Notes under the pieces: model-generated
The model's input: only the letters and a program-made list of their open reading frames with translations
What the model was told of the DNA's origin: nothing
Databases searched by the model: none
Shown here: one piece after another, positions 43,631-56,151 of the stretch
Numbering within the stretch: the stretch's first letter is position 1
Layout: each line of letters opens with the position of its first letter
Assembly: GCA_964016885.1 (NCBI GenBank)
Contig: OZ024740.1
Span: forward strand, 146,816,001-146,880,000
Source: Eledone cirrhosa
Taxonomy: Eukaryota
DNA: 64,000 nucleotides
Direction: 5' to 3'
Made by a program: the position numbers and the translations under genes

Positions 43631-43700
43631 GATTGACTTTGTTAGTTTCAGAGGAACCCGTTAAGGGTGAAAGCAGCGATTCTTTGCTTAAACTTTAATC
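43631..43700 (+). ncRNA. Hammerhead-fold RNA, U4A core variant, in a fold-back element at ~43583-43800
   Basis: GATTGA..AGTTT-CAGAGGA-ACCC-GTTAA-GGGT-GAAA-GCA..TGC-TT-AAACT-TTAATC. Confidence 0.6.
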
Positions 43701-43909
43701 TGTTATTTTAATAAATATTTGGTCTACGGATCTTATATATTTGATATATATTTATCCTTATCGAGCCCTCTTTGGATTTTAGTCTTCAAATTTATTATTA
43801 TTACTATATTATATATATAAATATATGGCATATATATATATAGAGATAAATCTATATGGCGTATATATATATATATATATATATATATATATATATATAT
43901 ATATATATA

Positions 43910-44204
43910 TATAAAGAAAAAGAGATGAAATCGAAAATGCAACTGGAGTCTTATTTTTTTTTTAAATATATATATTTATTTGGTTCCTTTACCGGTTTCG
44001 CAGTTCTTCTGCTTTTCAAAAGGTGACTTGAGATGGAGGGTCTGTGGTTTTTCTCAGTGAGAAAAACCACAGACCCTCCATCTCAAGTCACCTTTTGAAA
44101 AGCAGAAGAACTGCGAAACCGGTAAAGGAACCAAATAAATATATATATTTAAAAAAAAAATAAGACTCCAGTTGCATTTTCGATTTCATCTCCTTTTCTT
44201 TATA
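43910..44204. mobile_element. Palindromic element (centre 44057) with U3-A8 hammerheads at 43986-44023 (-) and 44091-44128 (+)
   Basis: CCTT-TTGAAAA-GCAG-AAGAA-CTGC-GAA-ACCGGT-A-AAGG in both arms. Confidence 0.85.
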
Positions 44205-44889
44205 CTTTCACTCCAGTAGGACACCTCGGTTATTTTTCATTTTGTAAAAAAAACCTCACTTTCTAATATATATATATATATATATGTATATATATTTATA
44301 TATACATATATATATATATATTTATATATACCGTATATATATATATATATATGCCACACATATATATATATATATATATATATATATATATATATATATA
44401 TATATATATATACATATAAATGGCATATATATATATATATATATATATATATATATATATATATATGGCATATATAGTAGAATAATCGAGTATCGGAAAA
44501 TCAGCTCACGAATTAACGATAAACAATATCCGATATGAGTGATATATATATATATATATATATATATATATATATAAATATATATATATACATATATGTG
44601 TACATATATCATATACACACGTTTGGATAATGAAACGAGTGAAAAGGTTGCATATGTGTGTGTGTGTCTGTGTGTGTGTATATATATATATATATATATA
44701 TGTGTGTGTGTGTGTGTGTGTGTGTGTGTGTGTGTGTGTGTGTGTGTGTGTGTGTGTGTGTGTGTGTGTATACATTTATATACAATATATATATATATAT
44801 ATATAAGTTTATCCCGGGTTCAATCTAGGATATCCACAGTAAGTAAGGTTCTCAATACATAGCAGAGCATACATATTTAATATAGAAAT

Positions 44890-44940
44890 GGCTTCTACAG
44901 GACTAAAACTGTTTCATTCGGGAGAAATCATCAGGAAGCC
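44890..44940 (-). ncRNA. Type I hammerhead ribozyme with complete stem III
   Basis: GGCTTC-CTGATGA-TTTC-TCCC-GAAT-GAAA-CAG-TTTTAGTC-CTG-TA-GAAGCC; sits in fold-back 44881-44990. Confidence 0.85.
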
Positions 44941-45019
44941 CTGATTTCTCCCGAATGCAACAGTTCTACTCCTTGGAAGCTATTTCTATATTTTATATAT
45001 ATATATGTGTATATATATA

Positions 45020-52559: not shown

Positions 52560-52751
52560 AATTGTTTCTACTTTTGGCTCAAAGCCAGCAATTACCCCAG
52601 CGCATTACTGGTGCTTTATTTTATCGACCCCGTAAAAATGAAAGGCAAAGTTAACCTCAGCGGGATTTGAACTCGGAACGTAAAAGGCCATAACTCGATA
52701 CTGCAAAGCATGGTGTCTGACGCTCTACCGATACTGCCAAATCCACCGCCC
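52560..52751 (-). mobile_element. Full-length SINE family A
   Basis: A/B boxes, central domain and 3' tail. Confidence 0.88.
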
Positions 52752-53550
52752 TTTCTGCACAGTGTACCAAATTGCACCGACGAGTTATCAGTCAACCCGT
52801 GGCTATAGTAGGGAACCCCCCCCCAAAAAAAAATTGCCCCCAAGTTGTGACGCGGTGGGATCGAAACCGGAATCATGTGGGTGAGTAGCTGTGCTGCCTG
52901 TCAACCACTACCAGTAAATATAGTAATCATAAAGTAGAAACCTCAACACTTCATGTATCTAGCCTCGTTACGTCAGTAGGCCATTCATTTATTTGAATTA
53001 ATACAGTTCCTTTATTTAACTTTGGTCCTTTTCAGTTTTCCTCTATTCTTTCTCATCTCTCTCTCTCTCTCTCCCCCCTCTCTCTCTCTCTCTCTCTCTC
53101 TCTCTCTCTCCCCCCCCTCTCTATCTCTCTCGCTCTCTCTATCTCTCTCTCACTCCCCCCTCTCTCTATCTCTCTATCTCTCCAGTGTGTGTGTGTTTGT
53201 TTATTGAATTTAATTTTAATTACTTTTTTCTTTTGATTCTTTTTCTTTTTTGAAAACTGAATAGAAATTTATATGGAAAAAAAAACTATCAATAAAAAAA
53301 TTAAATAAATAAATAAATAAATAAATAAATAAATAAATAAATAAATAAATACAAAATAAATCAACGACATTTCTGAACGGACAGGAAATAAATAGAAAAA
53401 CAGTTGAAATGTGAGAATGACAAGTCAAGACAGCGCCTCCACATGAATCTGTCAGGAAACGTCGGTTAAGCCACGCCTTAGTAATATGCTCAGCACGCGC
53501 ACACACACAAACACAGACACACACACACATTCATGCGGAAACTTTTGCCA

Positions 53551-53810
53551 TCTATCTATCTATCTATCTATCTATCTATCTATCTATCTATCTATCTATC
53601 TATTTATCTATCTATTTATCTATCTATCTATCTATCTATCTATCTATCTATCTATCTATCTATTTATCTATCTATCTATCTATCTATCTATCTATCTATC
53701 TATCTATCTATCTATCTCTATATATATGTCTGTCTGTCTGTCTATCTGAGTGTCTGTCTGTCTATCTGTCAGTCTGCCTATCTGTCTGCCTACCTACCTA
53801 TCTATCTATT
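53551..53810. repeat. (TCTA)n/(TCTG)n microsatellite
   Basis: Directly visible. Confidence 0.95.
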
Positions 53811-54504
53811 GTCTATATATAACTCTGTCCCTCTCCTTTTTGTTTTGTTTTCTGTTTCACTTTCTTTAATATTTTTCCCTTTTAATTTCTTTCTTTCTTT
53901 TAGTTGATTATCTTTCATTTTCCGTCTCTTTTTTCCATTTTCACTGTCTATATATTTACCTGTCACCTTCTTTTTCCGAGTCGTCTCAACGCTTTCCTTC
54001 CTTCTTATTCGATTTTCCCTCACTCTCTCTTGTTTATTGCTCTTTCGTTTAGATAGGAACCAACAGCTAACTATCAGTAAATATTGTACAACGCCGGTAG
54101 CAATGAATGACAAGAAGGTTATTGTTGCTAATTTTAATTTAATCCCTCACAACCATTCCACTCACTTCACTGGAGAAAAAGCTCAAGCCAATTTTATGGA
54201 AGCCATTTCGGTTTTGATCGCCATCACTTGAGCTCTGCCAAATGGACAAACTTCTGACATATTTAAACAGATACAGTTGAAACGAAATTAATTAGTTACT
54301 CTTTATAAGGTTTCGCCTCTTTTACAAGAATATTTCGAGCAAGTGGCATTAGATATTGTCGATATTATAGCTTCGAAAGCTATAGGACGATAAAAAGAGA
54401 AGGATGGCAAAATATTGTGAAAAGAGATATACACAGAACCAGAAAAGGGAGGGAGCGATATATATATATATATATATATATATATATATATATATATATA
54501 TATA

Positions 54505-56151
54505 TATTAATAATAATAATAATAATAGTAATAATAATAAATTTGAAGACTAAAATCCAAAGAGGGCTCGATAAGGATAAATATATATCAGATATATAGA
54601 ACCGTAGAGCAAATATTTATTAAAATAACAGATTAAAGTTTAAGCAAAGAATCGCTGCTTTCACCCTTAACGGGATCTTCTGAAACTAAAAAAGTCAATC
54701 TGTGAACGCAGAAGTAAATATTTCAAAAAAACGTTGCAACCGAAGGAAGACAAGAAGACGATACTTTGGTTCGTGGAAACGTTCCCTGGCAAAGAACGAA
54801 AAAAAACGAAGATAATACGTCATAAGTTGGTGCGGTGAAAACAATTACACGTAAAGACAAAACCACGTTTATGGTATAAATGAAGTCGTAGACTAATATT
54901 CTATTAGGTGGTTCATGGAGACGTTCTCTGGCAATGAACGGAAAAAACGAAGATAATATGTCATTATGTGGAGCGTGGATTGGCAGTATCGGTAGAGGGT
55001 CGGACGCCATGCTTTGCAGCAAAGAGTTACGGCCCTTCATGGTCTGAGTTCAAATCCCACCGAGGTTAACTTTGCCTTTCATCCTTACGGGGTCGATAAA
55101 ATAAAGTACCAGTAATACATTGGGATAATTGCTGGCCTTGTGCCAAAAGTAGAAACAATTATGTGGAGTGGGGAGAACAAATACACGCAAAGACAAAACC
55201 ACGTATATGGTATAACTGGAGTCGTAGACTAAAATTGTATTTAGGAAACCGAATGATTCTCGGCTTCCGAGTTAAGAATAAAGTAAATAAATAAAATACA
55301 GAGGTAATTGAAATTAAATATATACATACACGCATCCATATACGTACGTACACAAGCATACGCGAAAACACTCGCCATGGGTATGCAACTACAAGCACGT
55401 ACAAAAAAAACAAAAAAAACAAACCCGCACGCACTTACAGAACCCACGCAACGCTTGTACCCGCACACATACGAACGTATACACCAAATACACATAAAAA
55501 TATATATAAAAAAATATATATATATGTGTGTGTGTGTGCGTATATACATAATATATATAAATATACACACATAAATATGTATATAACGCGCGCACACACA
55601 TACCTACATGTAAATACACATATGTTCGCGGACGTACATCAACCAAAACACAAAGTACACATATACGCACACCCTACATAGGTACGAACCCGCATACTCA
55701 CACAGACACAAACTCACGTATACACATAACCAAAAGCACATGTACCAGTATATATAATATATATACGCCATAACATATACAATCAAGTATACGTACGAGA
55801 AAGTATACGTACCTTCAGCAAACGTATTATCTTCGTTTTTCCGTTCATTGCCAGAGAACCACCTAATAGAATATTAGTCTACGACTTCATTTATACCATA
55901 AAGGTGGTTTTGTCTTTGCGTGTAATTGTTTTCACCTCACCAACTTATGACGTATTATCCTCGTTTTTTTCCGTTCTTTGCCAGGGAACGTTTCCACGAA
56001 CCAAAGTATCGTCTTCCTGTCTTCCTTCGGTTGCAACGTTTTTTGAAATATTTACTTCTGCGTTCACAGATTGACTTTTTTAATTTCAGAAGATCCCGTT
56101 AAGGGTGAAAGCAGCGATTTTTTGCTTAAACTTTAATCTGTTATTTTAATA
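54505..56151. mobile_element. Non-coding element with ~340 bp inverted arms (54618-54960 and 55822-56151), U4A hammerhead folds at 54631-54700 (-) and 56069-56138 (+)
   Basis: Arms are reverse complements; internal ~145 bp tandem unit; flanked by (TA)n; family fragments at ~33070 and ~46527. Confidence 0.82.
54974..55157 (+). mobile_element. SINE family A nested in the above element
   Basis: TSD ATTATGTGGAG at 54963 and 55158. Confidence 0.92.

Follow-up and report, generated by a model that had tools for sequence, protein, structure and literature searches.

What does a hammerhead ribozyme contribute to a retroelement when a nearly invariant base of its core is fixedly changed, the fold is otherwise frozen and the open reading frames (ORFs) of the element are intact? 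The question is raised by 64,000 nt of the octopus Eledone cirrhosa (assembly GCA_964016885.1, contig OZ024740.1, positions 146,816,001 to 146,880,000; the whole stretch is hereafter the window), taken from a 3.0 Gb genome rich in microsatellites. Here a hammerhead with A in place of U at position 4 (A4) lies in the terminal repeat belonging to a Penelope-like retroelement (PLE). The family offers a natural experiment on the role of hammerheads in PLEs, whose function Craig 2021 (PMC8557442) calls unclear. Our comparisons, all made on sequence, suggest that this is probably a strongly slowed, dispensable ribozyme of a Hydra-clade PLE, kept in a conserved 3′-terminal module and not for rapid self-cleavage. 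An earlier note on this DNA had left two options, an unusual active variant or a catalytically damped fold, and we infer that the damped fold is the likelier.

The fold and its altered core

Three hammerhead copies were verified in the window, as follows.

43628..43703, plus strand: hammerhead fold, copy 1, type I; C3 at 43649, A4 at 43650, N17 (U17) at 43689
43628-43636, plus strand: copy 1, distal stem I
43637-43643, plus strand: copy 1, bulge
43644-43648, plus strand: copy 1, proximal stem I
43649-43655, plus strand: copy 1, core C3 to A9
43656-43668, plus strand: copy 1, stem II
43669-43671, plus strand: copy 1, GAA
43672-43688, plus strand: copy 1, stem III
43689, plus strand: copy 1, U17, with the predicted cut after it
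43690-43703, plus strand: copy 1, 3′ strand of stem I
54628..54703, minus strand: hammerhead fold, copy 2; C3 at 54682, U17 at 54642; family-consensus core with U10.1-U11.1
56066-56141, plus strand: hammerhead fold, copy 3; C3 at 56087, U17 at 56127

Each copy reads C3-A4-G5-A6-N7-G8-A9 and has G12-A13-A14 (GAA), the A15.1-U16.1 pair and H17. The triplet at 16.2/16.1/17 is C-U-U in all three, which fits the NUH rule. The architecture is that of a three-helix type I hammerhead open at stem I, with drawable helices of 5 + 9 bp (stem I), 3 bp plus a U-U (stem II) and 4-5 bp (stem III). The core departs from C3-U4-G5-A6-N7-G8-A9 at position 4 and agrees with it at the remaining six. In the family at large the sequence reads CAGAAGA-U-CCC-GUUAA-GGG-U-GAA, in which U10.1 and U11.1 are mismatched. 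Copy 1 (G7, A10.1) is thus an outlier within the family, and copy 3, whose proximal stem I contains an A x C mismatch, was missed by the hammerhead motif scan. Stem I does continue past the U-rich bulge, as had been proposed: beyond these 7 nt lies a real 9-bp distal stem (ACAGAUUGA/UUAAUCUGU) with predicted pair probabilities of 0.72-1.0. The fold also has an A-rich loop II in addition to this U-rich bulge, and loop II and stem I may make a tertiary contact of the kind known from hammerhead structures.

The earlier note had described three hammerhead copies with an A4 core and a CUU site, and this stands for all of them. However, copy 2 lies on the minus strand and, judging from their arrangement, copies 2 and 3 are probably head-to-head halves of a single insertion, so that the window holds two events rather than three. 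Rfam returned no hammerhead family for copy 1 at E <= 10, as was equally the case for a natural, partly decayed U4 copy, and it found no ribozyme in one long copy of the element (L046).

Position 4 across the genome

An exact 29-nt pattern around the core had 20,240 matches genome-wide, of which 20,023 carry A4, 92 carry T4 and 125 carry C4 or G4. The reversed control gave 0 in every count, and therefore the motif is not due to chance. By these figures the T4 count is near the mutational background. Moreover, A4 is present in 61/62 copies in which the fold is linked to the ORF, the remaining copy having a deletion there. Both counts bear out the view that the substitution is family-wide rather than copy decay: A4 is, on this evidence, the state of the whole family, in more than 20,000 genomic copies. 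A family consensus of U4, or stems that change among copies, had been named as what would overturn that view; the consensus is A4, and the stems are unchanged between subfamilies.

A relaxed pattern recovered 1,061 copies with CUGA. Of the 30 inspected, 20 are fold-back junctions exactly at the core. A classifier assigned a native 5′ stem to 1 copy, inspection by eye to 2, and those left over are junctions of other kinds. No hidden U4 ancestor subfamily was seen in this sample of 30 of 1,061, the look-alikes being mostly fold-back junctions. Around position 4 the sequence is quasi-palindromic, so that the heptamer centred there yields the U4 form when reverse-complemented, which accounts for CUGA look-alikes at such junctions. 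The fold-back junctions at this quasi-palindrome (loci L330-L359; about 1,061 copies) restore a canonical CUGAAGA core that lacks the 5′ strand of stem I, and this looks like a fold-back hotspot. An assembly artefact could be ruled out, since T at position 4 stayed below 1% in contigs from four public runs, the best of which perhaps derives from the sample used for the assembly itself; the runs of organisms B and C are of very low depth and were excluded as cross-species evidence.

The element carrying the fold

When the tail was traced into the flanking DNA, an ORF was reached, which identified the motif as part of the terminal repeat of a PLE. Twenty long copies (L042-L061) share one layout: a hammerhead, an ATG about 190 nt later, the ORF, an untranslated region (UTR) of about 1 kb and a second hammerhead, with a hammerhead-to-hammerhead spacing of about 3.26 kb and a unit of about 3.2 kb. 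The 709-amino-acid (aa) protein combines a PLE-type reverse transcriptase (RT) with a C-terminal GIY-YIG domain in a single ORF (RWR, DKT, YRDD, CxCX5C, VY-YIG, CDLC and CKH motifs) and has the features of a Hydra-clade PLE protein, the RWK of the clade description being RWR here. Partial-tandem terminal repeats, inverted 5′-truncated partners and (TA)n targets are likewise those of the Hydra clade. The canonical terminal-repeat hammerhead is not found; the fold is in the expected place, with an A4 core. On motifs matching the description in Craig 2021, the element is a Hydra-clade PLE. A complete ORF of 708-710 aa occurs in 12/46 non-duplicate ORF-selected loci, and in four of the 12 both repeats carry A4.

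Among database proteins, the nearest to the 709-aa ORF shares 56% identity with it. The 71 matches scored in a genome search with that database protein all belonged to the A4 family; thus, no close sister family was found. The family of the window hammerheads at 39490 and 39406 was rejected as a sister group, its linked ORF being only about 34% identical. The 709-aa protein matched no Pfam family at E <= 0.1, and no relative of the element was found in viral contigs. A retrozyme of the non-LTR (long terminal repeat) type was dismissed, as the motif ends an ORF-bearing autonomous element and not non-coding tandem units. Four long copies, scanned on both strands, likewise contain no further hammerhead of canonical type within the element, other matches lying in the flanks.

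Two other broken Hydra-type PLE ORFs lie in the window, at 2004-4026 (minus strand) and 12350-14138 (plus strand), the latter 35% identical to the A4 family protein over its C-terminal part. Elsewhere, a composite repeat (L310-L329, at least 78 copies genome-wide) bears the 3′ end of the A4 family, often as an internal tandem of about 370 bp; it retains A4, and its changes are confined to loop II, loop III and the bulge. It is not proof that the fold suffices for mobilisation, since 12/20 copies have a common downstream flank and are probably passengers in a larger mobile unit.

Comparison with other hammerheads

To place A4 among its relatives, 98 loci encoding related proteins, from metagenomes and genome bins, were scanned with position 4 left free. 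Motifs were found in 65, giving 63 distinct ones: 62 with U4, one with C4 and none with A4. The C4 motif lies upstream of its ORF and possibly belongs to another element; a shuffled control produced one match in five rounds. CUGA is also present in 26/26 Hydra rows of File S2 of Craig 2021, Hydra-1_Obim included, from all of which the A4 family differs, and the other seven motifs called in the window are all U4. Taken together, these surveys indicate that U4 is otherwise nearly invariant among related hammerheads.

The A4 family shares U-U at 10.1-11.1 with 31/63 relatives. In contrast, it has G15.2-C16.2 where 62/63 relatives and the hammerheads listed by Craig 2021 have C-G, and a loop III of 7-9 nt, compared with 0-3 nt in 60/60 foldable relatives and a short palindrome in Craig 2021. 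Its unit of about 3.2 kb with a UTR of about 1 kb also sets it apart from the Hydra elements described there, and two strings specific to the family are absent from that supplement. The CUU site is not peculiar, since the hammerheads at 39406 and 39490, a perfect inverted pair with U4 and G15.2-C16.2, have C or U at 17 (CUC/CUU).

Natural variants with a substitution in the C3-U4-G5-A6 turn and the fold kept are known, namely U4C (viroid), A6C (Bcep176) and U3-A8. The A4 family resembles them in this and differs in being uncompensated and fixed in so many genomic copies. U4A is not among the variants described in the available text of Perreault 2011, Naghdi 2020 and Cervera & de la Pena 2014. 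Our literature search found no report of U4A or of an octopus PLE hammerhead, although the variant survey of Lunse 2017 may contain one. Strict CUGANGA descriptors overlook whole high-copy families of this kind.

Other hammerheads in the window, of at least five families and all U4, are at 318 (-), 5712 (+), 39406 (-), 39490 (+), 44934 (-), 47881 (-), 59011 (-) and 60492 (-); the 39406/39490 pair is linked to a distant Hydra-type ORF in locus L306 (34% identity). Hydra-type PLE ORFs with hammerheads also occur in contigs of bacterial bins and symbiont assemblies (L261-L279), where they are most likely host contamination.

Conservation of the terminal module

Copies joining ORF and fold (n = 62) fall into a young group of 41 and two older groups of 13 (old-A) and 8 (old-B). 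Between the young group and old-A, synonymous divergence (pS) is 0.167, non-synonymous divergence is 0.021 and the adjacent UTR differs at 24/185 sites, whereas the fold outside the bulge differs at 0/69 (Fisher p = 5e-4 vs UTR). The bulge itself differs at 2/7 sites and the tail at 2/97. Between old-A and old-B, the comparison of fold with UTR is not significant (p = 0.19). Since A4 is found across the subfamilies, it is older than their split, and on these comparisons the terminal ~170 nt is a block that stayed frozen afterwards. The bulge varies in sequence and length among copies; bulge excepted, all three stems are invariant across subfamilies. No compensatory change was seen within the family. 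As the stems never vary between subfamilies, covariation could not be shown, and invariance is not covariation.

Counted from the cleavage site, +25-29 holds 31 of the 83 copy ends in the ORF-selected loci and +110-119 holds 19. Another 11 continue into the ORF, and the 15 found at +60-64 probably reflect an ungapped-extension artefact. Hairpins of the form GCTC...GAGC start at +32 and +122, a few bases 3′ of the main copy ends, and were located at 43717-43770 of the window and in L046 (tail +32..+77 and +122..+137). The start signals thus seem, from these positions, to lie downstream of the hammerhead. The earlier note had suggested that the fold is kept as an RT-recognition structure. This idea is not supported as it stands, since the hairpins next to the copy ends are separate from the fold and lie downstream of it, and since conservation of the fold does not exceed that of the tail.

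The nearest published parallel for such ends is PAc, a Poseidon element of Anolis (PMC11167929), which like the A4 family has two 3′ ends (long and short) downstream of its hammerhead and AT-rich targets. In PAc two internal RT start sites are shown, whereas their A4 counterparts are deduced from copy ends. Furthermore, the PAc hammerhead is canonical, minimal, protein-assisted and overlaps the ORF start, whilst in the A4 family the core is altered and about 190 nt separate the hammerhead from the ATG downstream of it.

Does the hammerhead cut?

Copying of cut RNA might pile 5′ junctions at the cleavage site. No excess was seen there: the site has 865 junctions, and a control position lying 13 nt upstream of it has 1,049. 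Inspection by eye gave true junctions in 18/30 and 17/30, respectively. Distal stem I and stem II are well supported by folding predictions, whereas the proximal part of stem I reaches 0.08 at most. For L042 and copy 2, the hammerhead is predicted to lie about 3 kcal/mol above the minimum-energy structure; for copies 1 and 3 the gap is 6-8 kcal/mol. In natural segments that differ only at position 4, C3/A4 are predicted to be paired at 0.75/0.71, compared with 0.28/0.25 with U4. A4 extends a competing helix with U11.1-GAAA, so that the hammerhead fold is predicted to be about 3-fold less populated, a small effect. Pairing of the core with loop III was rejected in its nested version, which has a predicted probability of 0.002.

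Among published mutants, single and double changes in the CUGA turn were all of low activity except the C3G/G8C swap (Roberts 2023). Metazoan PLE hammerheads have low activity in vitro (Cervera 2014), and catalytic hammerhead mutants of the anole PLE still insert in vitro, uncut RNA being the dominant substrate (Frangieh 2024, PMC11167929). On balance, the mutagenesis, the folding predictions and the insertion of these mutants favour a slowed, dispensable ribozyme. We hypothesise that the founder of the family fixed U4A and that the uncut RNA would serve as template. The GIY-YIG domain would nick (TA)n, and the RT would use two internal start sites, downstream of the cleavage site by about 25-29 and 115 nt. 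A4 may disrupt the uridine turn and also pair with U11.1 in a competing fold. As to its origin, we speculate that the quasi-palindromic heptamer was inverted by one template switch, turning the U4 form into the A4 form.

Several observations weigh against a slowed and dispensable ribozyme. The junction test had no positive control, and Frangieh 2024 likewise saw no read ends at a canonical site. Proximal stem I is equally weak in 14/60 canonical relatives. G5, A6, G8, A9, G12-A14 and A15.1-U16.1 are unchanged across subfamilies, as expected if cleavage still matters, and the tail is conserved to the same degree as the fold (Fisher p = 0.51). Moreover, natural variants of the core can retain function: U4C lowers activity in vitro, yet the viroid that carries it can still infect (Perreault 2011), and cleavage with A6C is good in Mn2+ (Naghdi 2020). 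The hammerhead of the anole PLE, for its part, needs the element's protein in order to cleave (Frangieh 2024).

A tentative alternative, which we consider possible though clearly second to a dispensable ribozyme, is a working variant, slow alone and rescued by the RT-endonuclease, by a loop II-bulge contact or by another metal, that still processes or circularises RNA; A4 would then be a lock keeping free RNA uncut. The protein-assisted cleavage of the anole hammerhead speaks for it, as does the invariance of the catalytic bases except U4 and of the three stems while the bulge varies. So do the extended 9-bp stem I and a stem III that, with its longer loop, is foldable as a monomer. U10.1-U11.1, common among the relatives, is tolerated (Perreault 2011), and an engineered hammerhead cuts a CUC site efficiently (PMC11875169). 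However, A4 occurs in 0/63 related motifs, and in the saturating screen of Roberts 2023, made on a different and protein-free scaffold, only C3G/G8C rescued the CUGA turn. Free positions (N7 and the loops) are equally invariant, so invariance does not single out catalysis, and the junction counts contain no DNA footprint of cut ends.

It is unlikely, in our judgement, that the fold is a relic, irrelevant as RNA, with the ends conserved via an internal promoter, an endonuclease target or homogenisation. The like conservation of fold and tail and the lack of compensatory change would suit such a relic; PLE terminal repeats carry promoters (Weinberg 2019), and Naiad PLEs prosper without canonical hammerheads (Craig 2021). 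Yet the subfamilies differ in the unpaired bulge and also to either side of the fold, a pattern that agrees with a structure and speaks against a block swapped in recently. A derived sub-lineage altered only loop II, loop III and the bulge.

More doubtful still is a locked switch, in which A4-U11.1 would hold the RNA uncut and copy-competent until binding of the element's own RT-endonuclease opened the core, and which might have helped the family to reach its high copy number. Were it true, the element would time its own RNA processing.

Insertions and other repeats in the window

Further parts of the family in the window are listed below.

43586..43629, minus strand: inverted (fold-back) fragment of the same element end as copy 1, joined through short microhomology and beginning in a (TA)n tract
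43704..43804, plus strand: terminal-repeat tail after copy 1, up to the long 3′ end, including the first GCTC/GAGC-type hairpin region
54525..55826, minus strand: 5′-truncated element copy around copy 2 (3′ UTR, fold and tail to the long 3′ end)
55822..56150, plus strand: inverted partner of the preceding copy, with a short 3′ end in (TA)n
33071..33139, plus strand: stub from A4 to the short 3′ end, lacking C3 and 5′ stem I
46474..46577: stub in which an inverted tail (46474-46530, minus strand) is fused to a core fragment (46528-46577, plus strand)
61336..63244, minus strand: broken ORF copy of the same family, of an older subfamily, 89% identical to L042 and without the 3′ end

Partial copies near 33070 and 46527 had also been said to show A4. 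However, neither stub includes C3, as both begin no earlier than position 4; the second also lacks part of stem I, and its A falls in the junction microhomology. They are therefore weak witnesses for A4.

A near-perfect long inverted repeat family (44005-44109, ~10997 and ~49123), resembling a miniature inverted-repeat transposable element or a PLE fold-back, gave spurious Rfam microRNA matches. Lastly, an unrelated high-copy repeat of about 190 bp, similar to a short interspersed nuclear element, interrupts the 3′ UTR of the copy 2 element at about 54975-55162, and further copies lie at 14573-14756, 29098-29282, 36855-37037, 52558-52746 and elsewhere in the window.

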